Virus genome (UHGV): UHGV-0342795
Direction: 5' to 3' (one strand)
DNA: 43,959 nt
DNA from: a virus
A program made the translations under genes and the position numbers. Positions 1-18,055 of this stretch are shown one piece after another (position 1 is the first letter of the stretch; the number at the start of each line of letters is the position of its first letter). The notes under the pieces were generated by a model. It searched no databases. It was not told the origin of the DNA and worked only from the letters and a program-made list of their open reading frames with translations.

Positions 1-534
1 ACAGGAACAATTTCTTCCACTGTAGCTGGTGGTACGGTTAGCGCGTCCACGACTGTTAAAACCAACTCAGGCGCTACTACAGCTACTGGCACAAACTCAA
101 CAACTCAAATAGAAGCGTTAACAACGACAACGACAACGTCAGGAATTGTGGGTTCTACTACCCTAAGTATTGCAACTATTCCAAGTCATAACCACGAATT
201 TCGCTACGTTTTAGGTTCTCAAGGTGGAACCAACCACTACGCAGTTGCGCTAGAAACTGAAGGTTCTTGGAACGGTTCTTTCATAAATTACACTGGAGGA
301 AACGCTGCACATTCGCATTCTTTAGCAATGAACGCGCATAATCATTACATCGCTACTCCTAATAGCCACTCTCACACGTTCATAGGCGCGCCTCACAACC
401 ATGCAATTCCATCTTTAACTGTAAACGCTCCCACGTTTACTGGAACAGCGCACACTCATACGTTTACTGGCTCGTCTACTGTCACCGCCCCTCCATACTA
501 CGCTCTTTGCTATTTCATCAAACTTCCTGAATAG
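1..534 (+). CDS. Tail fibre protein, C-terminal part (5'-truncated by the window start); collar-like domain with six HxH motifs
   Basis: The reading frame is open from base 1 in the frame of the listed ORF and stops at TAG 532-534. Six HxH motifs are present (SHNHEF, AAHSHSL, AHNHYI, SHSHTF, PHNHAI, AHTHTF), typical of metal-binding trimeric fibre tips. It lies immediately upstream of a tail-fibre-assembly gene. Confidence 0.6.
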   Translation, partial: TGTISSTVAGGTVSASTTVKTNSGATTATGTNSTTQIEALTTTTTTSGIVGSTTLSIATIPSHNHEFRYVLGSQGGTNHYAVALETEGSWNGSFINYTGGNAAHSHSLAMNAHNHYIATPNSHSHTFIGAPHNHAIPSLTVNAPTFTGTAHTHTFTGSSTVTAPPYYALCYFIKLPE

Positions 535-1792: not shown

Positions 1793-3616
1793 TTAGTCTG
1801 CCTCCGCCCAGTTTTTCGCCTCATGGCAATCTACAATCAACGGAACCCTCAACGTAACGCATTCTTCAAGCACCCGCTTGAGTTCCTTGAGGGCTTCTTT
1901 GCCCATTTTCGTTGGAGGTACGGACACGTCAATTTCGTCGTGTACGGTAATGTGAGGGGGAAGCACTTCAAATAGCCCTGCCTCGTACGCATCCACCATA
2001 CCTTTCTTCATGATATCCGCCGCCGTCCCCTGAATCAACCTGTTGTACAACGAGTGCAATTTGCGGGAGGGATGCACTCTTGCCCTCCTGCCAAGCAACG
2101 TGAATATGTACCCTGCTTGGGTAGCCTTTTCCACAACGCGCTTGCGTGTCTGCTTCAGGAAGGGAACCTCCTTGTGGTACGCCTCCATGAACATGACCGC
2201 CTCTTCCTTTGACCAATAGAACTTGCGGGAGGCCGCTTCAGCGCCCATGCCGTATGACGCGCCGAAGTTGAGTCGCTTGGCTGTACGCCTGTCGAACCCA
2301 GTGAGATCCTGAATGTGCTGATGGTAGTCCGTCTTCGGGTTGTCCCTGTACGTCTGCCTCAGCTCTTCGCTTCCAGGTCCAATCGCGTAATGCGCGCCTA
2401 TTCGGTACTCAACCTGACTTTGGTCGAGTTTAGCCCACGTGTACCCTTCCTCCGGAATGAATAGCTTGCGCAGGATTTGACCTTCTAGCAATTCGTCACC
2501 ACCTGAGAACAGGTCGTCTTCCTGTGCTGAAACCTGTTGCAGGTTGGGTTTCGCGCTTGAAAAGCGTCCCGACACAGCTCCGTATCCGTCGCTCTTGAGC
2601 GGATGGAACTGGCAATGCAGTCTGTCCCCTACGACGAAGTCGTAGTACGGAATGAGGAACATGTTGGTTAGCGTGTTGTAATGCCGCCACAACAGGATAG
2701 TCTTCAGCTTAGGATCAGTCCCGGCCATGACCATACGCGTGATGGCATCCTTGTCCAGATTGGGGTTGCCCTCCTTGCCTTTCATCTTCATGAATTCAGT
2801 TGGAGGATTGCGTGGGTACTCAATGCCCTTTCTGTCCAGCACCTTGGCAAGCTGAGTGGACGATCCAATATCGAACTCCCCGCCAGCCCATTCATAAAGG
2901 TCTGTTTGAAGTTCGTACATTTTGTCCACCACAGCCAAGGAAGTCTTCTTTAGCCGAGGCATGTCCAGCCTTACCCCTTGTTTGCGCATTTGAATCAGCA
3001 ACGGTATGAGGCGGCACTCTATGCTATACACCTCATCAAGACCCTGCCTAGAGATGACCTCCCGTTGCTTCTCGATGATTCGCATGGGCAGCATGCCGTC
3101 CAGCTCGGCATACCGGGCTACAGCTTGCGCTGGCATCCTCCAAATGTGTTCACGAGCGTCCTTGAACTTCCAGCCTTGTTTGGCGCAATACATATCCAAC
3201 AGGTCTGAAGCCTTCTCTTCGCACCCATAGATTTTAGCCAAGGCGGACAAACTGTAGGACTGACGGTATTCGTCAATCAACGGCTCAGCATATTGGATAT
3301 CTTCAAACGGCCCTTTGACTTCAATACCCATGTTGTTAACGAGCCAGTCAAGATCGTATACGATGTTGGCTCCAACCTTGCGCGTGGGTTTGGCAAGAAT
3401 GTCCTTGATTATGCGCAGGTTGCGCTCCTTGCGTTCAGGAGTGGTATCAGGATGCGCAATGTCCAAATAGACTGCCCTTTCCTTTGTCGCCAGCGAAACG
3501 CCAACAACGTACCCGTCCTTACGAAAGACTCCCGGCCCTTTTGATCTAAGGTGAGGGTCTTTCGTTTCAGTATCTACGCCTATTTCAGTGGCGGAACTCA
3601 GCCAATCAAAACTCAT
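1793..3616 (-). CDS. DNA polymerase I-like (family A) with 3'-5' exonuclease domain
   Basis: An Exo I-like motif (GVDTET) lies near the N-terminus. Pol A motif B (RRTAKRLNFGASYGMG) and motif C (VHDEIDV) are present. The start is taken at the ATG 3616-3614, which has AAGGAG upstream. The listed ORF extends 16 codons further upstream. Confidence 0.9.
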   Translation of the reverse strand: MSFDWLSSATEIGVDTETKDPHLRSKGPGVFRKDGYVVGVSLATKERAVYLDIAHPDTTPERKERNLRIIKDILAKPTRKVGANIVYDLDWLVNNMGIEVKGPFEDIQYAEPLIDEYRQSYSLSALAKIYGCEEKASDLLDMYCAKQGWKFKDAREHIWRMPAQAVARYAELDGMLPMRIIEKQREVISRQGLDEVYSIECRLIPLLIQMRKQGVRLDMPRLKKTSLAVVDKMYELQTDLYEWAGGEFDIGSSTQLAKVLDRKGIEYPRNPPTEFMKMKGKEGNPNLDKDAITRMVMAGTDPKLKTILLWRHYNTLTNMFLIPYYDFVVGDRLHCQFHPLKSDGYGAVSGRFSSAKPNLQQVSAQEDDLFSGGDELLEGQILRKLFIPEEGYTWAKLDQSQVEYRIGAHYAIGPGSEELRQTYRDNPKTDYHQHIQDLTGFDRRTAKRLNFGASYGMGAEAASRKFYWSKEEAVMFMEAYHKEVPFLKQTRKRVVEKATQAGYIFTLLGRRARVHPSRKLHSLYNRLIQGTAADIMKKGMVDAYEAGLFEVLPPHITVHDEIDVSVPPTKMGKEALKELKRVLEECVTLRVPLIVDCHEAKNWAEAD

Positions 3617-4100
3617 TATTCCGCTCCTTTGCCCTTTTAGTTCTTTCCCTCTTTGAGGCCTCATGTGCCAGTGCCTTGCACTCGTCAGAGCAATACTTGA
3701 ACCTTGCGTCGCCCTTAAAAGGCTGTCCGCACTGCTTGCAATAGATCACGTGGGGCTCAGACCGTTGCGCCGCATTTTTGCACGCATGACAGCAGTAGCG
3801 TTGCCAAGGTACAGCAGGAACAAACGTGTTGTAGCAGTCGGGGTTGGCGCACGACCTGCGCTCCTGTTCCCTTTCCTTTTGCTCCTTTTTGATCTTATCG
3901 GCAAGGCTGGAATTGCATATGGCACATACAACGGTCTTCGTAGCGTTACCCACAAGCACATTGCGCCCGCAGATCGTGCATGCAAGAACCTTCATAGCGT
4001 CTCCTGGATTTTTACCATGCGCAGGAACGTCGCTTTGGGAGGCGAAAATTCCTTTCGTGGCCTTTGCCCTATGCCGAAAGTGCGTCCTGCAAAACGGCAT
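3606..4100 (-). CDS. Cys-rich zinc-ribbon protein
   Basis: Six CxxC/Cx3-4C pairs occur along the 164 aa (CTICG, CAICN, CANPDC, CCHAC, CKQCG, CSDEC). Its 3' end overlaps the polymerase start by 11 nt. Confidence 0.5.
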   Translation of the reverse strand: MPFCRTHFRHRAKATKGIFASQSDVPAHGKNPGDAMKVLACTICGRNVLVGNATKTVVCAICNSSLADKIKKEQKEREQERRSCANPDCYNTFVPAVPWQRYCCHACKNAAQRSEPHVIYCKQCGQPFKGDARFKYCSDECKALAHEASKRERTKRAKERNNEF

Positions 4101-4139: not shown

Positions 4140-5411
4140 TTACTTAGAGCTCGCTTCCATCAGACTCAGGACTTCAATGAGAGGCCAATGGCCCTTGTAG
4201 TCCGTCTTATAGGGCTGGTCATAAATGACCTTGCGCACCCCAAGGTGGTTGAGAAGCTTCAGGCATGCGTCGCATGGCCCATGCGTCACGTACACTACAG
4301 CGTTGCTCCAGTCTGAGAATCCGTTCTGGAGAGCCTTTATGCAAGCCCTCATTTCAGCGTGAACGGAGTAGCAACCGTCGCTGTAGAACACTTCCTTTTT
4401 GTCCCTTGCGCATTCAGTGCAAGCCTCCCCGTCCCGGTCTCCGTACCCCGTTGCGATGACTTCTCCACGTGAGATAATCACAGCCCCACACTTCTTTTTT
4501 AAGCAACGGGACTGCTTGGAGGCCTCCCATGCCACGTTCATATTCAGATTATGATTGCGCCAATCGAATAACCCGATAAAACGTTGCACAAAAGCTCCAA
4601 TTGTCAAACGCTGAATAGCGGCTTGGGGGCACGACACCAACGGCTGTGCAACATCAAGGTTCTCGTTGGTGAATCTCTTTTCGCAATCCCTGAACTTGTC
4701 AAACGCCCATTCATAGAAGTGCAAGTTGAGGGCTTGATGGATGTGATAGCCTAATCCAAGGTTAGGATACGTTCTTTTAAGCATTGCGAGCGCAGTGTAA
4801 TGCACGACCCTGAAGAAAGGCAAGTCATACGGCAGACCGTACCAAAGGTCATTGGATCGCATGATGACTTGCATGTTGAGCGCATCACCTTGAATGTACA
4901 GGTTGATGATCAATGTGCAAGGATTATCGTTGCTGATGTAGGCATGTTCCTTGGAGTACAGCGTCATCACAGCCTTTTTGGAATCAGGGTTGTTACGCAA
5001 GCAATTGATTGCGTGCTCGAACTGAGTAAAACCATGCTTATTCTCGTCATGGAACAGAAGGAACCCATAGTTGCTGTTGATGGTTTTTCCGTCGTCGGAG
5101 CACTTGCTCCAGAACTTGCTCATCTTTACAGCGTCTTCCAATTGACGAGATCCGCTCGCGTAAAAGTCCAGTTCCTTCTCAAGGTACTCCTGAGAGGGAT
5201 ACCGTCCAAGGCAATACGTAGAAGCCTCCGGGTCGAGCACCAACGTTACGTTGCGCATTTCGTAGAGCCCTTGACCCTTGCGGTTAACAGTGTGCCGACC
5301 GTTCTTATGGATGTAATAGAAGATATCCAAGAAAGGCACGCACTGTCCTTTCTTTACGTTAAAGGTAGTGAACACAGGGTATTCGTTAGTTCCAAGTTGA
5401 GGGGTATCCAT
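4140..5411 (-). CDS. Fusion protein with an N-terminal thymidylate-synthase-fold domain (pyrimidine C5-modifying enzyme, Asp at the TS Asn177 position) and a C-terminal dCMP/cytidine-deaminase domain
   Basis: The TS core aligns without gaps to E. coli ThyA 144-181. NPCTLIINLYIQGDALNMQVIMRSNDLWYGLPYDLPFF aligns with [38 protein letters not shown], conserving the catalytic Cys, R166, S167 and D169, with D in place of N177. The C-terminal 120 aa carry the CDA zinc motifs HAEMRA and PCDAC (VVYVTHGPCDACLKLL). AAAGGA lies upstream of the ATG. Confidence 0.8.
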   Translation of the reverse strand: MDTPQLGTNEYPVFTTFNVKKGQCVPFLDIFYYIHKNGRHTVNRKGQGLYEMRNVTLVLDPEASTYCLGRYPSQEYLEKELDFYASGSRQLEDAVKMSKFWSKCSDDGKTINSNYGFLLFHDENKHGFTQFEHAINCLRNNPDSKKAVMTLYSKEHAYISNDNPCTLIINLYIQGDALNMQVIMRSNDLWYGLPYDLPFFRVVHYTALAMLKRTYPNLGLGYHIHQALNLHFYEWAFDKFRDCEKRFTNENLDVAQPLVSCPQAAIQRLTIGAFVQRFIGLFDWRNHNLNMNVAWEASKQSRCLKKKCGAVIISRGEVIATGYGDRDGEACTECARDKKEVFYSDGCYSVHAEMRACIKALQNGFSDWSNAVVYVTHGPCDACLKLLNHLGVRKVIYDQPYKTDYKGHWPLIEVLSLMEASSK

Positions 5412-9560: not shown

Positions 9561-10337
9561 CTAGAACGTAGCTCCGCCGGGGGTAACATCAATGGCTTCA
9601 GATGCGTCACCCGCTTCCAGCGCAGTGAAGTCTAGACGCTGTTCGGGAGTGGGCAACGCCTTGCGTTCCTCAGTGACAAGCTGAAGCGTTTCCTTGCCGA
9701 CGAACCCTGCGAACTCCACATGCAGACCAGCCCACGAGCCCTGATCGTTGCTCATGGGAACCGTGGTCAGTGTCCACTTCATGAAGTAGGGAAGAGCCTT
9801 ACGTCCAGTTCCCGGGATGAACGTGCTGGTCAGCAAGCGGTTCCACCTACGGGCTTCCTTCAGTTGCGTGGAGGACAAGCAGAGAAGGCAGATACCGTCT
9901 TCGATGTAGTCCGGGAACACGATGTAGTATGTGTACGTATCAACGAACTCGTTTCCTGTTCTGGAGATGAGCTTGTTCTTTTCGTTGCGGTGAAGCTCCC
10001 CAGTGGCCTCCATCTGAGCGACAATCTCAGGGGCATGCGCCTGAACGAAACCGCCGCGATTGGGCTTCCATTCGATAAAGTAACGGTCGAACCGTCCCAC
10101 CACAACGTCAACCGGGGGCTCAATGACCCTGTTGTTGATGTTGTTCAGGAACATGCCTTCTTCCGCGCCGGGGATATGGTTAGGATCAGTGCGCTTGCAT
10201 TGCGGGGACAGGCTCTGCAGAATGCGAATGAACGGGAACGCAACAACGTCAGCGGAAAGGCTTTCAAAGCCTCCCAGTCCGTCGTCGAAGAGATGGGAAT
10301 AGTCCTCAGCCTGATTCTGCATGGTTTCCTTGGTCAT
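9561..10337 (-). CDS. Hypothetical protein (258 aa)
   Basis: The ATG is preceded by AGGAGA. It is acidic and aromatic-rich, and no motif was recognised. It follows two nucleases, so it could be a recombination partner such as an SSAP, but that is speculative. Confidence 0.5.
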   Translation of the reverse strand: MTKETMQNQAEDYSHLFDDGLGGFESLSADVVAFPFIRILQSLSPQCKRTDPNHIPGAEEGMFLNNINNRVIEPPVDVVVGRFDRYFIEWKPNRGGFVQAHAPEIVAQMEATGELHRNEKNKLISRTGNEFVDTYTYYIVFPDYIEDGICLLCLSSTQLKEARRWNRLLTSTFIPGTGRKALPYFMKWTLTTVPMSNDQGSWAGLHVEFAGFVGKETLQLVTEERKALPTPEQRLDFTALEAGDASEAIDVTPGGATF

Positions 10338-10353
10338 GATTGCGTCTCCTTGT

Positions 10354-10860
10354 TTAGCCTATGATGAACTTTTCATAGTCGGTTTTGTCGAAAGCACCGC
10401 CAGCCTGAACAGCAAGGTAGTGAGGCCCGAGTTGTGTAAGGTGGTCGACCACGTCCTGGAAGTATTGGCTATGCCCTTCTTCCTCGACAATGATCTTTTT
10501 CAGAAGCTGAGCCGACACGTGGTCAATCTCGCTCAGTTTCTGAATGTACTCGTTGTACTTGAATACCGTGTCCCGCTCGAGATCAGCGTCGGTTGCGAAA
10601 ACAACCATAGGCTCCTGATTGGTGTCCACGTTCTGAGCCGGGGCAACGATAGGAATGCCGCCGAGTTCACGAATACGCTCGCTGAGCATCTCAGCATGGC
10701 GCATTTCCGAAATGGCGATTTTCTTTACGGCCTTGGCAAACGTAGGGAACATGAGGTTGTCAAGGGCATAGTGGTGTTGCATGTACTGACCGATGGCGAC
10801 AAGCTCCATCGATCTGGCCAGATTCAGAATGTCTATAGATTCTTGAGGGTTCAAAGACAT
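10354..10860 (-). CDS. bfr: Bacterioferritin (Bfr-like ferritin-fold di-iron protein)
   Basis: It aligns to bacterioferritin. The segments ELVAIGQYMQHHY, AISEMRHAE and EEEGHSQYF supply the ferroxidase ligands (E18, E51, H54, ... E127, H130 equivalents) and the heme-ligand Met at position 52. AAGGAG lies upstream of the ATG. Length is 168 aa. Confidence 0.8.
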   Translation of the reverse strand: MSLNPQESIDILNLARSMELVAIGQYMQHHYALDNLMFPTFAKAVKKIAISEMRHAEMLSERIRELGGIPIVAPAQNVDTNQEPMVVFATDADLERDTVFKYNEYIQKLSEIDHVSAQLLKKIIVEEEGHSQYFQDVVDHLTQLGPHYLAVQAGGAFDKTDYEKFIIG

Positions 10861-10863
10861 TGC

Positions 10864-11010
10864 TTACTCCTTTTCGTTTAGTAGGTTACGCAGTTCTTCT
10901 ACGTATTCCAACAAGCGCGTCACGTCGTCGCTGGCTATGGACAAGCCTCCGACAAACATGTCATAGTCCCCTACCCGCGACTGAATCTCTTCCATTTCCT
11001 CGTCCGTCAT
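10864..11010 (-). CDS. Small acidic protein (48 aa), translationally coupled to the upstream gene
   Basis: An internal ATG of the listed 65-aa ORF overlaps the upstream stop as TAATG. There are no cysteines, so it is not a Bfd ferredoxin. Confidence 0.35.
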   Translation of the reverse strand: MTDEEMEEIQSRVGDYDMFVGGLSIASDDVTRLLEYVEELRNLLNEKE

Positions 11011-11606
11011 TACTTGCTCCTTTTGATTGTGGTATTGTAGTAGGTGAACGCGGATACGCACTTGGGAAGATCCTGCAGAGCAATATGGGAATCCCCGTCA
11101 AACGACGGGTTTTGCTCGTTAAGCAAACAAAGGTTCTTGATGTACGCCTTCAGAGTCATGGGGTGAACGGTCTGCTTGATGTCCGGGTAAAGGTCGAGGT
11201 TGTCCACCAACAGCTTCTTGATCTTGCGCAGGATGCTGGCATCCATCTTGCCGAGCTCCATTTGCGTCTTGAGGATGTTGGATTCACCCCGTTCGTCAAG
11301 GAACTTAGCAAACGCCTCCATGTCCGTAATAGTAGGCGACACGTCCATCTTGACCTGCACCTTCTCGCCCGAAGGAAGTTTAATCTCGGACAAGCCGTTC
11401 TGCATGAGCAGGTTGGGAATAAGCTCTTTGGAGGTCTTGTAGAACGCGGCCTTGGCTTGCGAAAGCTGTTCTTCCAAGGAGTCTACCGTATCCTTCTGGT
11501 TCTTGTACAGCTCCACCAACGCCTTGAGCTTGGCAAGGGAATCCTGCTCGGGAGCCTGATTAGATACCTCGTCCAGCGTTTCCATCAAATAATCAAAGTC
11601 ACCCAT
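11010..11606 (-). CDS. Hypothetical protein (198 aa)
   Basis: The ATG is preceded by AGGAGA. The protein is helical and charged, and no motif was recognised. Confidence 0.5.
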   Translation of the reverse strand: MGDFDYLMETLDEVSNQAPEQDSLAKLKALVELYKNQKDTVDSLEEQLSQAKAAFYKTSKELIPNLLMQNGLSEIKLPSGEKVQVKMDVSPTITDMEAFAKFLDERGESNILKTQMELGKMDASILRKIKKLLVDNLDLYPDIKQTVHPMTLKAYIKNLCLLNEQNPSFDGDSHIALQDLPKCVSAFTYYNTTIKRSK

Positions 11607-11624
11607 GATGCGTCTCCTTAGTGG

Positions 11625-12101
11625 TTAGTTGTTTAAGAATCCGAAAACGATCTCGGTAACGTGCATTCCTTCTTCCGTTACCCAGACGCCACCCTGCTCA
11701 TCCCTCACTGCCAAGGGCATGACAATAAGGTTCTTACGGTCAATCCTGACTACGGCATGGTACTTGCCCTCCTTTGTGATGCGCTTGCTTGCCGAAGCCG
11801 AAGGCGGGAATGCCTTGATGAGTTGCTTGCGACTGCCGTCATGGTACAGCTTGAGACCTTCCGAGGAAGGAACAGCCCAAACATCAATCTCGGCATACAG
11901 CTTGTAAAGAGGATGCTCAGCGCACTGCTCCAGCACGAAGTCATGAAGTGAACCCTGCATGACGAAGACAGACTTCAAATAGTCCTCTTCCCACGCAACG
12001 GCGTAGTTGCCACAAAGGTAGGTTTCTTCAACCTGTGCTCCATTGGCAACGGCAGGAGTAGCGAAGAGCAGACCAGTCAACATGAGCGCGGGGATGTTCA
12101 T
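11625..12101 (-). CDS. Secreted/periplasmic protein with cleavable signal peptide
   Basis: The N-terminus MNIPALMLTGLLFATPAVANG fits a signal peptide with n-region, h-region and an AxA cleavage site. The ATG overlaps the SNF2 stop as ATGA, and TGGAG lies upstream. Confidence 0.55.
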   Translation of the reverse strand: MNIPALMLTGLLFATPAVANGAQVEETYLCGNYAVAWEEDYLKSVFVMQGSLHDFVLEQCAEHPLYKLYAEIDVWAVPSSEGLKLYHDGSRKQLIKAFPPSASASKRITKEGKYHAVVRIDRKNLIVMPLAVRDEQGGVWVTEEGMHVTEIVFGFLNN

Positions 12102-14416: not shown

Positions 14417-15193
14417 TCACTTACGGAACTGCGAAAACCGGATAGTTACGTCCTTATACATGCGTCCCGTGAGCGGATTGGTTTTGTCCTTGAGCATAAC
14501 ACAAGACGGGAACTTGTTGCGTAACAGCACCGCCGCCTTAACCCGAAGGTCATCGTCACGGTAAAGGTTACAACCTGAGTTCGTACCCGCTCCAAGTTGA
14601 TCGTCAGCAGTGAACAGGTTCAGCGTAGCCGTCCTGTAGCCAGCCTTCATCAGTTGGAGTTGCATGTGAAAGTCCTCAAGGATGTCCCCTTCCCATTCGT
14701 AACGGAAGCCTTCTCCCGACAGCGTGGGCAGGTGCAGGACTGGCGTCCACATGATGCGCTTGTTAATGCCCCACGTCTTTGTTTCAGTGTGGGCGAACAT
14801 GCGATGACGCAAGCCTATCATGGGGAACTCCGAACTTACGTTTTCGAACACAGGTCTAAGCGCGTTGTCTATGCTGACGGGATGGAGCTTTTCGAGCTTG
14901 TTGCCGTTGCGATAGGCAAACGCCAGATCGTCATCGAAGATGCCGAGCTTTTCAACGTCCCGAACGTAAGCCTCTTCCATGATGATGTCCCGAATGCGAG
15001 ACACCTTGTTAGCAGTATGCAACATGAGCCTTACGTTGAACGCTTTAGCTACAGGCTTGTACGCTTCAGCTTCATCCTTGTGCACCCAAAGGGATACAGG
15101 GTAATGAGAATGCTGGAGCCACGTGAGCGTCAGTTGCCTGTTCAGCAGAACGTCTGCCCTTCCCCGGCTCAGTACGGCGAGTTCATACTTCAT
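14417..15193 (-). CDS. GT-A fold (GT2-like) glycosyltransferase, soluble
   Basis: An Asp-rich DxD-like segment (LGIFDDDLAF) lies at about residue 90. WEGDILEDFHMQLQLMKAGYRTATL matches the GT2 'ED.D..LRL..AGY+' catalytic-loop motif. AGGAGA lies upstream of the ATG, and no TM segments are seen. Confidence 0.5.
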   Translation of the reverse strand: MKYELAVLSRGRADVLLNRQLTLTWLQHSHYPVSLWVHKDEAEAYKPVAKAFNVRLMLHTANKVSRIRDIIMEEAYVRDVEKLGIFDDDLAFAYRNGNKLEKLHPVSIDNALRPVFENVSSEFPMIGLRHRMFAHTETKTWGINKRIMWTPVLHLPTLSGEGFRYEWEGDILEDFHMQLQLMKAGYRTATLNLFTADDQLGAGTNSGCNLYRDDDLRVKAAVLLRNKFPSCVMLKDKTNPLTGRMYKDVTIRFSQFRK

Positions 15194-15201
15194 ATCGTCT
15201 C

Positions 15202-16455
15202 CTAGAACATTTGACTTTCAATGAAACTGCGACGCATGGTGCATTCATAAGCCGTCTTGTCATGGCGGAAGCCTGTTACCCAGTTCGCCTTGGCATGATA
15301 AATGCGCTGGTTCCTTGCGCTGATATCCTGACCGTCAATGGTAAGGACTTGCCCGTAAAACTCAGTCTTGAGTGCGGGCTTGCCGTCCCGTACTTCACTG
15401 AGAGCCATACGCGTTTGCAATGGAATGCCGCTCACGGTAGCCAGCCAATGGACTCCAAGCTGTTCATTGTTGTCTCCCAACAAATAAACGCCGAGTGTGA
15501 TGCCAGCAATGAGCCCCGCCTTATCCCATTCACCGCCGTTGGTGTAGCCTATGACGAATGCGTCAATGTCTGTCTGACTAGCCATGGACATACTCCTCTT
15601 CAGTTTGATGGTGGAGTTCTTGTCACGGAAGTTGCCAATAGCCGGAATGTAGAACGAGCTCAGGTTCTTGAGAACTACACCTTCCTCACCGTTGGCAACC
15701 AGTGATTCAAAGTAGGTCTTCTTGCCCCGCTCCCATTGCTTGGGAAGGCGTACGGAACGATCGAGCATGGGCATGCCTTGCATGAGCTCAAGCCTTTCCC
15801 TGAAGGGAATCTCCGTGATGATCTTCTCACGTTCAATGGGAAGGAAGTCGAACGCCACCAGCTCCATGGGAGCCGTAGTGCGTTGCGCAAGGTGGCTGTC
15901 ATGCACGTTAAGCTGAAGCATAGACGTTACAGCGTTCAAGCCCTTCCCGGTGAAGTTGCCGTCATTGAGCTCCACGAACCCGTCAGTGACCAGTTCGCAG
16001 TCCAATATGAACTCTTCCTTCCAATGACCAGCGAACTCCTTGAGCGTGCTCAGCTTGCCGTTGAGCGGAACAAGAAGCTTTTCAGTGTACTCCACCGGAA
16101 GCAGGGTAACAGTCGAGCGATTACGCCCAAAGGCTGAAAAGCCCTCATCGGGATGGTAGACCAGAACCATGCGGCAACCATCGAACTTCTCTTCGGCTAC
16201 CCAACCATTGCCGTCGGAAATGACGGCCTCCTGCTCGTCCTGCTTGAGCTGGTCATAACGGTAAGCCAACTGAACGTCATGCAACTGATCACGCATGACG
16301 CGACCGAAGGTGATCTCCCGCTGTTCACGATAGTGTTCAGCGATGACCGCCTCCAAGTCCCTGTTCAGGATCTTGCCGTTCTTACCCGTCCCTTCATACG
16401 GAACACGCAATCCGAGCTCTTCGATTCTGTTGCACAACTGCGTAAACGTAGCCAT
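15202..16455 (-). CDS. ATP-dependent DNA ligase
   Basis: Nucleotidyltransferase motif I (KxDG) is AEEKFDGCRMVLVY. Motif IV/V-like EGVVLK is present. The start is taken at the ATG 16455-16453, which has GGAGG upstream. The ORF track's start is a TTG four codons earlier. The ATG overlaps the upstream stop as TAATG. Confidence 0.85.
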   Translation of the reverse strand: MATFTQLCNRIEELGLRVPYEGTGKNGKILNRDLEAVIAEHYREQREITFGRVMRDQLHDVQLAYRYDQLKQDEQEAVISDGNGWVAEEKFDGCRMVLVYHPDEGFSAFGRNRSTVTLLPVEYTEKLLVPLNGKLSTLKEFAGHWKEEFILDCELVTDGFVELNDGNFTGKGLNAVTSMLQLNVHDSHLAQRTTAPMELVAFDFLPIEREKIITEIPFRERLELMQGMPMLDRSVRLPKQWERGKKTYFESLVANGEEGVVLKNLSSFYIPAIGNFRDKNSTIKLKRSMSMASQTDIDAFVIGYTNGGEWDKAGLIAGITLGVYLLGDNNEQLGVHWLATVSGIPLQTRMALSEVRDGKPALKTEFYGQVLTIDGQDISARNQRIYHAKANWVTGFRHDKTAYECTMRRSFIESQMF

Positions 16456-17396
16456 TAGAACCTCCAAGCACTCGGAATGTAAGGTTGCTCCAAGGGAGAG
16501 AGGATGCGACTGAAGTTGTTCTTAATGCTCTTGCCGTCATCACGCACCCGACAATACTTGTCGTATTCGCAGAACAGGTTCTGCATGTCATTGCCACGGA
16601 GTGGGAACTCCTTGCCGTCTACAGTGAGGACAGGGAAGGACGGAATGCCGTTAATCGCAAGCCGCTTGAGCACGCTAGGCAGTTCAATCAGCTTAAGATG
16701 AGGCCAAACCCGTCTCATCCCGCGCTGGCACCCAATCCCCGGAACGATGAACTTCTCGTAGTCAAACATTAAATGGTTGTAAGAGAAGTCCAAAGCGAAC
16801 TGGTAAGCCAAGAAGTCCCCAAACCCCTCATGACGGCGGAAGATTGCGTAGGTGTAGCTCATGTCTGAAGAGTTGTAAGCCCTCTCCAGATCACCGCTGT
16901 CTTCCATGTGCTTCAGCGTCCTGAGGAACAGCTCCGTCCTTGTGGTGCAACCGAACGTCCACGGCGGAGTCATCATGTAAGCGTTGTTGTATACCGTAAC
17001 CCCGCAAGCGCGACGTGCTTCAACGAAGCTCTCAATGGCAGGAAGCGCGTTGTACGCATCGTACTTGTAATCCGGAAGGGATTCCCATGTCTCAATGCTG
17101 TTGAACAACCTGAACAGGAACATGCCCATGCGATGAGCGCGAGGGAGCTCAAAGCAATTCGCCTTGTCGTCAATGATGTTCTTCGCCATGTACTGCGAAA
17201 CACGATCAAGGATTCGGTAGGCGTTGGTGAACTTCCACTTGTCAAGGATAGGATCCTCGGACACCAGCGCAGTCCCATTGACACGTGCGAGGAACCGCTC
17301 TTGCCTACGAATAGCGAACCCGTAAAAGTCCACCAGTCGCTTACTGGTAGGCAGGTGCGGAGCCACCGGAAGGTCGTTAGCCTTGAACCAATCCAT
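16455..17396 (-). CDS. Hypothetical protein (313 aa), no recognised motif
   Basis: The start is taken at the ATG 17396 (AAAGGA upstream); the track start is a TTG. Conserved-looking segments are KWKFTNAYRILDR and HEGFGDFLAYQFALDF. It is embedded between the ligase and the HD hydrolase. Confidence 0.55.
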   Translation of the reverse strand: MDWFKANDLPVAPHLPTSKRLVDFYGFAIRRQERFLARVNGTALVSEDPILDKWKFTNAYRILDRVSQYMAKNIIDDKANCFELPRAHRMGMFLFRLFNSIETWESLPDYKYDAYNALPAIESFVEARRACGVTVYNNAYMMTPPWTFGCTTRTELFLRTLKHMEDSGDLERAYNSSDMSYTYAIFRRHEGFGDFLAYQFALDFSYNHLMFDYEKFIVPGIGCQRGMRRVWPHLKLIELPSVLKRLAINGIPSFPVLTVDGKEFPLRGNDMQNLFCEYDKYCRVRDDGKSIKNNFSRILSPLEQPYIPSAWRF

Positions 17397-17398
17397 GC

Positions 17399-18055
17399 TC
17401 AATCCTTTATGTTAAGCTCTTCGAACGCCTCGAAGAGGTTGGTGTACACCATGTCATCGGACATGGGATTCAACAAGGAGTAGACCCGCTTGTCATACTG
17501 GGACGCATCCCACTCGGGCTCACCAAAGAAGAACGAGCACTCCATGAAGCCAAGCGCGTCATCCGCCTTCGTAACAGCCAGATCAGGTGTCGCGTTGTAC
17601 TTGTCAAAGATCGCACGCTGAATCCTGTCTTCGCACTGAAGATACTCATAAGCGCACTTGAACGCCTCCCGGTTGCCTTCCTCAGCGACGTCCATGTATA
17701 CCTTGACAGCTCGTCTCACCGCCGTAACAATGTGGTTCTTCATGGGACGGATGATGTCCCCTGTGTACGCCTCCACCGCGTCATGCAACAGAACGGCTCT
17801 CAGGATGTCCGGAGCGGTGATACCTATGACATGCTTGGCATACGCCAGCGTAGCCAATGAATGCTGCCCCACACTATAATGGTAGGGGGTCGCGCCGTTG
17901 AAACGGCAGATGTGCGACAAGCTGTTGGCAATGTGCGCAAGGCTCAGGTTCGGTCCAAAGATCGCGTTCTCCGGATCATGGGTAGGCAAAGCCCAAAGGT
18001 TGAGTCTTACGCGTTCAGTTGTAAAGACACCGGGATAACAAGGTTGCTGGCTCAT
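17399..18055 (-). CDS. HD-domain phosphohydrolase (YfbR-like 5'-deoxynucleotidase family)
   Basis: The H...HD...D motif is H(SLATLAYAK)H ... LLHDAVEAYTGD. AGGAGA lies upstream of the ATG. Confidence 0.75.
   Translation of the reverse strand: MSQQPCYPGVFTTERVRLNLWALPTHDPENAIFGPNLSLAHIANSLSHICRFNGATPYHYSVGQHSLATLAYAKHVIGITAPDILRAVLLHDAVEAYTGDIIRPMKNHIVTAVRRAVKVYMDVAEEGNREAFKCAYEYLQCEDRIQRAIFDKYNATPDLAVTKADDALGFMECSFFFGEPEWDASQYDKRVYSLLNPMSDDMVYTNLFEAFEELNIKD

Follow-up and report, generated by a model that had tools for sequence, protein, structure and literature searches.

Does a bacteriophage encode a genuine bacterioferritin (Bfr), and what would it gain from one? The question is raised by the UHGV virus genome UHGV-0342795, a stretch of 43,959 nucleotides (hereafter the window) that corresponds to a complete circular myophage genome of about 44 kb. 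An ATG-started open reading frame (ORF) at positions 10354-10860 on the minus strand, here called bfr, encodes a 168-amino-acid homologue of the Desulfovibrio-type bacterioferritins and lies next to a smaller ORF for an acidic protein of 48 amino acids. Both ORFs and their coordinates had been given in a preliminary description of this DNA, and we confirm them. We conclude that the longer product is a real bacterioferritin homologue at the level of sequence and structural model. With moderate confidence, we also propose that it is a functional haem-type bacterioferritin, captured once by an ancestor of these gut myophages from an anaerobic bacterium and kept since then as an auxiliary gene.

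Family membership of the 168-amino-acid protein

The protein matches the Pfam Ferritin family (PF00210, E = 1.5e-23, 83.7 bits against a cut-off of 24.5). Its best sequence match in the PDB is the bacterioferritin of Desulfovibrio desulfuricans (1nf4, E = 1.9e-32, 43% identity), followed by dozens of other bacterioferritins, and matches to Dps or Dps-like (DPSL) entries are weaker (8w1d, 3.7e-10; 2vzb, 6.8e-9; 1moj, 3.6e-4). The AlphaFold2 model of the monomer, with a predicted local distance difference test score (pLDDT) of 90.1, is composed of four long helices (5-35, 39-65, 84-112 and 114-144) and a short fifth helix, the E helix, at about 146-152. When the model was compared to the PDB with Foldseek, 1nf6 and 1nf4 were the best matches (root-mean-square deviation 1.0 Å over 151 columns, template modelling score 0.87), and the best 50 matches were all bacterioferritins.

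We aligned the protein with its phage and cellular relatives, with 1nf4 and with the Bfr of Escherichia coli, whose sequence is identical to 1bcf. The predicted ferroxidase ligands E19, E52, H55, E95, E127 and H130 align with E18, E51, H54, E94, E127 and H130 of the E. coli protein, and M53, within the motif ISEMRHAE, aligns with the haem ligand M52. The six di-iron ligands, M53 and the nearby Tyr26 are invariant in all 92 aligned sequences from the phage and its phage and cellular relatives. All six ferroxidase ligands and the haem methionine, which had first been recognised from the sequence of the window, are therefore present, and none of them is lost upon alignment to the family.

The alignment also shows that the phage protein keeps the region of the E helix; in the homologues this helix lines the four-fold axes. 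Beyond it, the phage protein ends with the tail KTDYEKFIIG (KTDYEKFI[IV]G among the phage copies), while the cellular relatives, which come from loci L015-L094 in many phyla of anaerobes, carry IAGTPxxTGG[YF]SKGF[VI]. Since TGG[YF]SKGF[VI] is shared by the cellular relatives and the phage form has diverged from it, the tail is not a phage invention. We considered the alternative that the protein is of the 12-mer type of DPSL and Dps proteins. DPSL proteins have a conserved cysteine pair beside the di-iron site, and the phage Bfr has no cysteines, which argues against an assignment to this type. The retention of the E helix and the far weaker matches to DPSL and Dps entries than to bacterioferritins led us to reject it.

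Compared to characterised systems, the phage protein most resembles the D. desulfuricans Bfr (1nf4/1nf6), which has the same six ferroxidase ligands, haem methionine and E helix and also an extended C-terminus. However, the phage gene is hosted in a replication operon and has no redox-partner gene nearby, whereas in Desulfovibrio the bfr gene is described as linked to rubredoxin-2. The Bfrs of E. coli and Pseudomonas aeruginosa (1bcf and 3is7) have the same fold and ligand set with only 27-28% identity, and their canonical ferredoxin partner, Bfd, is absent from the phage.

Homologues in other viruses are scarce. The phage Bfr has no match among the PHROG families, and no verified deposited phage with a detectable homologue was found among 50,697 phage records. 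Five matches in these records were discarded, namely Salmonella whole-genome shotgun contigs, the UNVERIFIED Pseudomonas phage Y5, which carries a host BfrB with wild-type 3is7 as best match, and two UNVERIFIED faecal scaffolds. The records AFYI01000003.1, AGRM01000003.1 and OQ572407.1 of the phage collection (bacterial contigs and phage Y5) are thus a source of false phage ferritins. In BFVD, the viral structures closest to the phage Bfr are Ftn- or Dps-like proteins with at most 18% identity. Several BFVD hits from uncultured Caudovirales (A0A6J7WPK9, A0A6J7WIS1 and A0A6J7XDU5), named prohead proteases and 333 to 763 amino acids long, contain a region with a ferritin- or Dps-like fold, a hint that other phages may direct ferritin-like cargo to the capsid.

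Genes of the ferritin superfamily are nevertheless known from gut phages. 'Flandersviridae' genomes measure about 85 kb, against the 44 kb of the window. One sentence in PMC11780533 mentions a bacterioferritin gene, as a possible gut adaptation, in 'Flandersviridae' viral operational taxonomic units enriched in chronic kidney disease, and a bacterioferritin gene is also mentioned in a Nitrosospira prophage (bioRxiv 10.64898/2026.05.02.722434). Likewise, Dps-like and Mn-catalase genes are auxiliary genes of gut phages (Benler et al. 2021, PMC8008677), interpreted as reducing free iron and oxidants in infected anaerobic hosts, and Dps-like genes occur in Lactobacillus phages (PMC6669764). These genes differ from the phage Bfr in that their products are Dps 12-mers or catalases that lack a haem ligand, and they reside in other phage groups with Bacteroidota as predicted hosts. 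Given these published cases, the phage Bfr does not represent a novel type of system. The earlier statement that ferritins are rare in phages is therefore correct for deposited genomes and has to be amended for gut phages.

Capture, retention and natural loss of bfr

The site of bfr is delimited upstream by a DUF7307 gene (Pam3 gp33-like; 11010-11606, minus strand; Pfam PF23984, E = 1.5e-14) and downstream by a Pam3_Gp34-like gene (9561-10337, minus strand), which was assigned by Pfam (PF23977, E = 5.8e-42) and by synteny. The ORF of 48 codons (10864-11010, minus strand) lies between the DUF7307 gene and bfr. In every one of the relatives L001, L002, L005 and L102, bfr is found between the same two genes, and its identity to the window protein (82%, 55%, 52% and 43%, respectively) tracks that of the flanking genes (72-75%, 47-57%, 42-51% and 38-53%). 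Phage copies of Bfr span 43% to 100% identity overall. In L116 and L118, which are more distant relatives with no Bfr, DUF7307 directly adjoins the gp34-like gene. In Pseudomonas phage LBL3 (L103), a helicase and a hypothetical ORF precede the gp34-like gene, and no ferritin is annotated.

To place the phage proteins we relied on a neighbour-joining tree, in which the phage Bfrs are monophyletic in 44 of 60 bootstraps and form a clade that is sister to the whole cellular subfamily sampled. Cellular Bfrs are thus their nearest outgroup, and because the phage clade is sister to the entire sample, no specific donor can be singled out. The cellular relatives share at most 52% identity with the phage protein and belong mainly to Desulfobacterota, Planctomycetota and Spirochaetota, lineages that are known as anaerobes.

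Since its capture the gene has been under purifying selection. The ratio of non-synonymous to synonymous substitution rates (dN/dS) is 0.02-0.11 in most pairs of near relatives, and in the comparison with L012 we counted 13 synonymous changes and one non-synonymous change. Together, the single clade, the divergence in step with the flanks and the purifying selection indicate one old capture followed by retention. The preliminary description had spoken of a bona fide bacterioferritin, and this holds as far as sequence and structure prediction reach, given the ligands, the haem methionine, the E helix, the restriction of the best fold matches to bacterioferritins, the purifying selection and the long retention in the phage clade.

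Not all copies are intact. About 97% of the catalogued Bfr member sequences are complete, and about 3% carry in-frame deletions or frameshifts (P0002, P0006, P0007, P0009-P0011 and P0014). One variant could be followed at the DNA level, where a 72-bp in-frame deletion of the B-C loop is accompanied by a change of the start codon from ATG to CTG (L122, 1501-1929; L123, 347-775). It is present in two independent assemblies, one from ENA and one from Logan. Further variants comprise in-frame deletions at short micro-homologies and a fusion of the 48-amino-acid protein to Bfr (P0065). As a control, no truncated clusters were seen among the close baseplate J clusters listed, although the comparison is imperfect since clusters can absorb fragments. 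The existence of natural deletion variants implies that bfr is accessory and not essential. Its insertion between genes that are adjacent in relatives, the cellular origin of its nearest outgroup and its dispensability identify bfr, as judged from these genomes, as a moron gene.

Host and possible role of the phage bacterioferritin

The operon around bfr runs leftward, is tightly packed and includes the replication genes for a SNF2 helicase, primase, UvrD, PolA and ligase, which bears out the early or replication setting first proposed for bfr. Scans for promoters and terminators around the gene returned counts not above those of shuffled controls, and none near bfr on the minus strand.

The phage itself is extremely common in metagenome assemblies. 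One of its tail proteins was found in 1,051 blocks of an assembly index, 546 of which include contigs of 20-50 kb, and the cohort-style names of the samples suggest that the assemblies are of human-gut origin. The gene order of relatives, in which the PolA end of the genome comes after the fibre and Tfa genes, agrees with a circular map. A tRNA scan of the window returned none, and the regions examined showed no integrase. We also looked for a prophage, and hence a host, through L010, where a near-identical phage lies on a 432-kb scaffold; its genome is circular, with no integrase in the stretches examined.

Other clues to the host come from similarity of genes. Shine-Dalgarno (SD) sequences precede many genes of the window, and the most similar proteins of cultured phages come mostly from phages of Proteobacteria. 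A megablast search of 12 kb of the window against the 50,697 phage records found no match, and the gp34-like, Tfa and baseplate proteins share only about 29-33% identity with those of cultured phages over most of their length, so that no named phage or host follows from them. The baseplate J protein of the window is, however, 51% identical to a protein cluster named from Bilophila wadsworthia. In addition, the chromosomal prophage L126, whose baseplate J is 98% identical to a B. wadsworthia protein, shares synteny with the window over the whole tail module, tape measure to fibre (38-62% identity). RelE and HicAB toxin-antitoxin pairs and a sulfatase gene break up the tail module of L126, which has chromosomal flanks and may represent either a prophage or a domesticated tail element. 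With moderate confidence we take the host to be one of the Desulfovibrionaceae, such as Bilophila, a strict anaerobe that produces sulfide and has a Bfr of the same subfamily of its own.

A protective role against Fenton chemistry and oxygen would best fit these findings. Capture would have inserted bfr between two conserved genes of the replication module, so that it would be expressed together with the replication genes. The subunits are predicted to form a 24-mer cage with haem at the interfaces of subunit dimers, in which the di-iron centres would oxidise free Fe2+ with O2 or H2O2 and the iron would be stored as a mineral inside the cage. Free iron and oxidants would thereby be lowered in the infected cell, probably that of a strict anaerobe of the Desulfovibrionaceae, and both the replicating phage DNA and the oxygen-sensitive metabolism of the host could be protected until lysis. 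Detoxification of iron and oxygen would fit the strictly anaerobic, sulfide-producing host that the tail module suggests. According to the title of Figueiredo et al. 2012, as cited in PMC4383621, Bfr protects Desulfovibrio vulgaris against oxygen. Benler et al. 2021 (PMC8008677) proposed that the Dps-like and Mn-catalase genes of gut phages make anaerobic hosts more tolerant of oxygen while they are infected.

Several observations weigh against a functional bacterioferritin with such a role. The best NCBIfam model for the protein is bfr (TIGR00754), with a score of 62.1 that is below the equivalog cut-off of 125.55. The experimentally characterised 1nf4 protein (78.8) and the cellular members of the subfamily (62-75) also fall below this cut-off, so the threshold leaves out the entire subfamily and is uninformative here. 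No product of the window is recognisable as Bfd, rubredoxin or another redox partner, so that any release of iron would rely on the host. Among the species representatives in GTDB no relative of the phage Bfr above 52% identity was found, and hence no prophage copy. The loss variants show that the phage can do without bfr at least sometimes. The sole basis of the host assignment is the tail-module similarity of 38-62%. Finally, what we observe is family membership at the level of sequence and model, conserved ligands, a single origin, long retention, purifying selection and the position in the operon; from these we infer expression, 24-mer assembly, haem binding, activity, the identity of the host and a physiological benefit.

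The same data bear on other explanations of why the phage keeps the gene. By sequestering Fe2+, Bfr could mimic iron starvation and thus de-repress iron-regulated genes of the host, such as those for receptors or nucleotide metabolism, or deprive rival phages or the defences of the host of iron. Such manipulation is compatible with the intact ferroxidase and storage apparatus and with the position among replication genes, and the lack of an encoded partner for iron release fits a one-way sink. However, the window yielded no regulatory element, no gene related to Fur and no phage enzyme that depends on iron, and the present data do not separate iron withdrawal from detoxification; we consider it unlikely, while leaving it some room. 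Quite improbable, in our view, is that bfr is a passenger, that is a captured host gene in decay with no role in the phage life cycle. It is true that deletion and frameshift variants exist in wild genomes, one of them verified in DNA, and that none were seen in the imperfect baseplate J control. Yet a gene in decay would hardly have been retained at one locus, with every ligand invariant, across phages that have diverged to 43% identity, nor does decay agree with the low dN/dS in most pairs and the intact state of nearly all catalogued copies. We give almost no credence to the reading that the protein is a ferritin-like di-iron oxidase of a DNA hypermodification pathway and not an iron store. 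The ferritin-like superfamily includes oxygenases and the phage encodes a set of genes for thymidine hypermodification, but the similarity is specific to bacterioferritins in the haem methionine, the E helix and the C-terminal tail of the subfamily, and bfr is not adjacent to the modification genes.

The preliminary description had also raised the possibility that Bfr supplies iron to the tips of the tail fibres, where it would metallate HxH motifs during virion assembly. HxH repeats in fibres of the T4 gp37 type coordinate iron. The fibre gene of the window (43348-43959 joined to 1-534, plus strand), which the linear map of the circular genome cuts in two, encodes six such motifs at its C-terminal tip, and that of the near relative L107 encodes five. 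On the other hand, the fibres of L001 and L003, both of which bear Bfr, have C-termini with no HxH. Moreover, near-identical genomes carry wholly different fibre genes, those of L104-L106 being without HxH, which suggests receptor-module swapping within one phage species, and bfr is kept across the clade. Since fibres are swapped and L001 and L003 have no HxH, iron supply to the tip cannot explain the conservation of bfr. The need for iron would also be small, a few dozen atoms per virion by our estimate, and we regard a depot for the virion as very unlikely. A cage tied in a broader sense to phage-specific biology has slim prospects. It might metallate HxH tips in some lineages, co-assemble with the host's own Bfr of about 45% identity and thereby seize its iron store, or secure iron against precipitation by sulfide in a sulfidogenic host. 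Were any of these true, a haem-ferritin would be a genuine part of the infection cycle, beyond general relief of stress, in a phage that ranks among the most prevalent of the human gut.

If the phage bacterioferritin is active as we propose, a very widespread phage of the human gut would, in the course of infection, alter how iron and oxidants are balanced in its host, which is probably a Bilophila-like, H2S-producing pathobiont. The idea of oxygen and iron defence by gut phages would then take in a haem-containing 24-mer ferritin besides Dps and catalase, and a likely phage of Desulfovibrionaceae besides those of Bacteroidota. The interest of the locus comes from the prevalence of the phage, the completeness of the Bfr signature and the natural knock-outs, since the bfr deletion variants provide ready-made controls.

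The 48-amino-acid ORF and other genes of the window

The smaller ORF had been described as overlapping the stop codon of bfr through the sequence TAATG and as encoding a translationally coupled partner. The first of these statements is wrong, because TAATG joins the DUF7307 stop to the start of the small ORF, upstream of bfr. On the coding strand the DUF7307 gene ends with AAAAGGAGCAAG TAATG, where its stop overlaps the ATG of the small ORF. The junction of the small ORF and bfr reads GAAAAGGAG TAA GCA ATG, with the TAA located 3 nucleotides before the bfr ATG (GAG TAA GCA ATG). The SD sequence of bfr, AAGGAG (10867-10872, minus strand), lies within the last codons of the small ORF, 6 nucleotides before the bfr ATG. 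Downstream, bfr and the gp34-like gene are separated by a 16-nucleotide spacer with an AAGGAG of its own (GGC TAA ACAAGGAGACGCAATC ATG).

The small ORF is, on sequence evidence, a genuine coding gene. A strong SD sequence precedes it, near relatives keep it as an ORF, in-frame variants of 47 and 49 amino acids included, and the pairs that have diverged further give a dN/dS of about 0.08-0.15. The product contains 14 acidic (D/E) and four basic (K/R) residues, with no cysteine and no histidine. AlphaFold2 predicts three helices (pLDDT 78), for which there is no fold match in the PDB, and the protein has no match in Pfam, NCBIfam, PHROG or PADLOC.

Its distribution is much narrower than that of bfr. 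The gene is absent from the Bfr-bearing relatives L001-L008 and L102, including those with 82%, 55%, 52% and 43% Bfr identity, and in the relatives that lack it the DUF7307 gene either adjoins bfr or runs into it (the L002 junction reads AGGAGTAAGTGATG). When 1.84 billion representative proteins were searched exhaustively with HMMER, only the lineage of the small ORF itself and a single remote homologue, P0213 (53% identity), were recovered. In L121, P0213 is surrounded by small early genes of a temperate phage; an integrase and a DNA methyltransferase are also encoded there, but no ferritin. A match to a 637-amino-acid repeat protein (P0214) was judged spurious. Two near-identical 17-mers, AAAAGGAGCAAGTAATG and AAAAGGAGTAAGCAATG, bracket the gene at 11008-11024 and 10858-10874 on the minus strand, and each of them supplies an SD sequence and a start codon. 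They are likely the scar of its insertion and a substrate for its loss. Taken together, the sequences identify the 48-amino-acid gene as a mobile moron, inserted recently and in one lineage next to bfr, and it stands outside the mechanism proposed above.

A dedicated partner of Bfr, such as a co-translated chaperone, gate or reductase adaptor, is accordingly very doubtful. Immediate adjacency with a gap of 3 nucleotides, the SD sequence of bfr inside the 3' end of the small ORF, and the conservation and coding nature of the ORF in the lineage of the window speak for a partner. The same tight spacing is, however, seen at several neighbouring junctions of the operon, and the protein has no cysteine or histidine for a cofactor. 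Its absence from all of the more distant Bfr-bearing phages and the lack of a ferritin near its remote homologue argue that it is not dedicated to Bfr, and they leave the claim of a translationally coupled partner unsupported. As an obligatory partner, it is effectively refuted. A redox partner of Bfd or rubredoxin type was rejected for the lack of cysteine ligands for an iron centre and of any family match; among the aligned relatives of the protein, cysteines are sporadic and at non-conserved positions.

The only protein of the window with multiple CxxC motifs is encoded elsewhere, by a 164-amino-acid ORF (3606-4100, minus strand) that is not adjacent to bfr and lies between the PolA and ThyA-like genes. 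Its four CxxC motifs probably form zinc ribbons, and it has a sub-threshold Pfam hit. Two ORFs on the opposite strand of the bfr region (10321-10881 and 10860-11621, plus strand) returned no match in family searches. Upstream of DUF7307, the slot at 11625-12101, next to the SNF2 helicase gene, appears to be a variable hotspot for morons, as different genes occupy it in each relative. In the window it hosts a 158-amino-acid ORF on the minus strand with no family match, whose N-terminus (MNIPALMLTGLLFATPAVANG) resembles a Sec signal peptide by eye. Finally, the thymidine hypermodification genes lie on the minus strand at 16455-17402, 14417-15193, 4140-5411 and 17399-18055. They encode a 5-hydroxymethyldeoxyuridine (5-hmdU) DNA kinase (PF18723, E = 8.7e-50), a TET-associated glycosyltransferase-like protein (PF20691), a fusion of thymidylate-synthase-like and dCMP-deaminase domains, and an HD-domain protein, and the set is conserved in the relatives of the phage.

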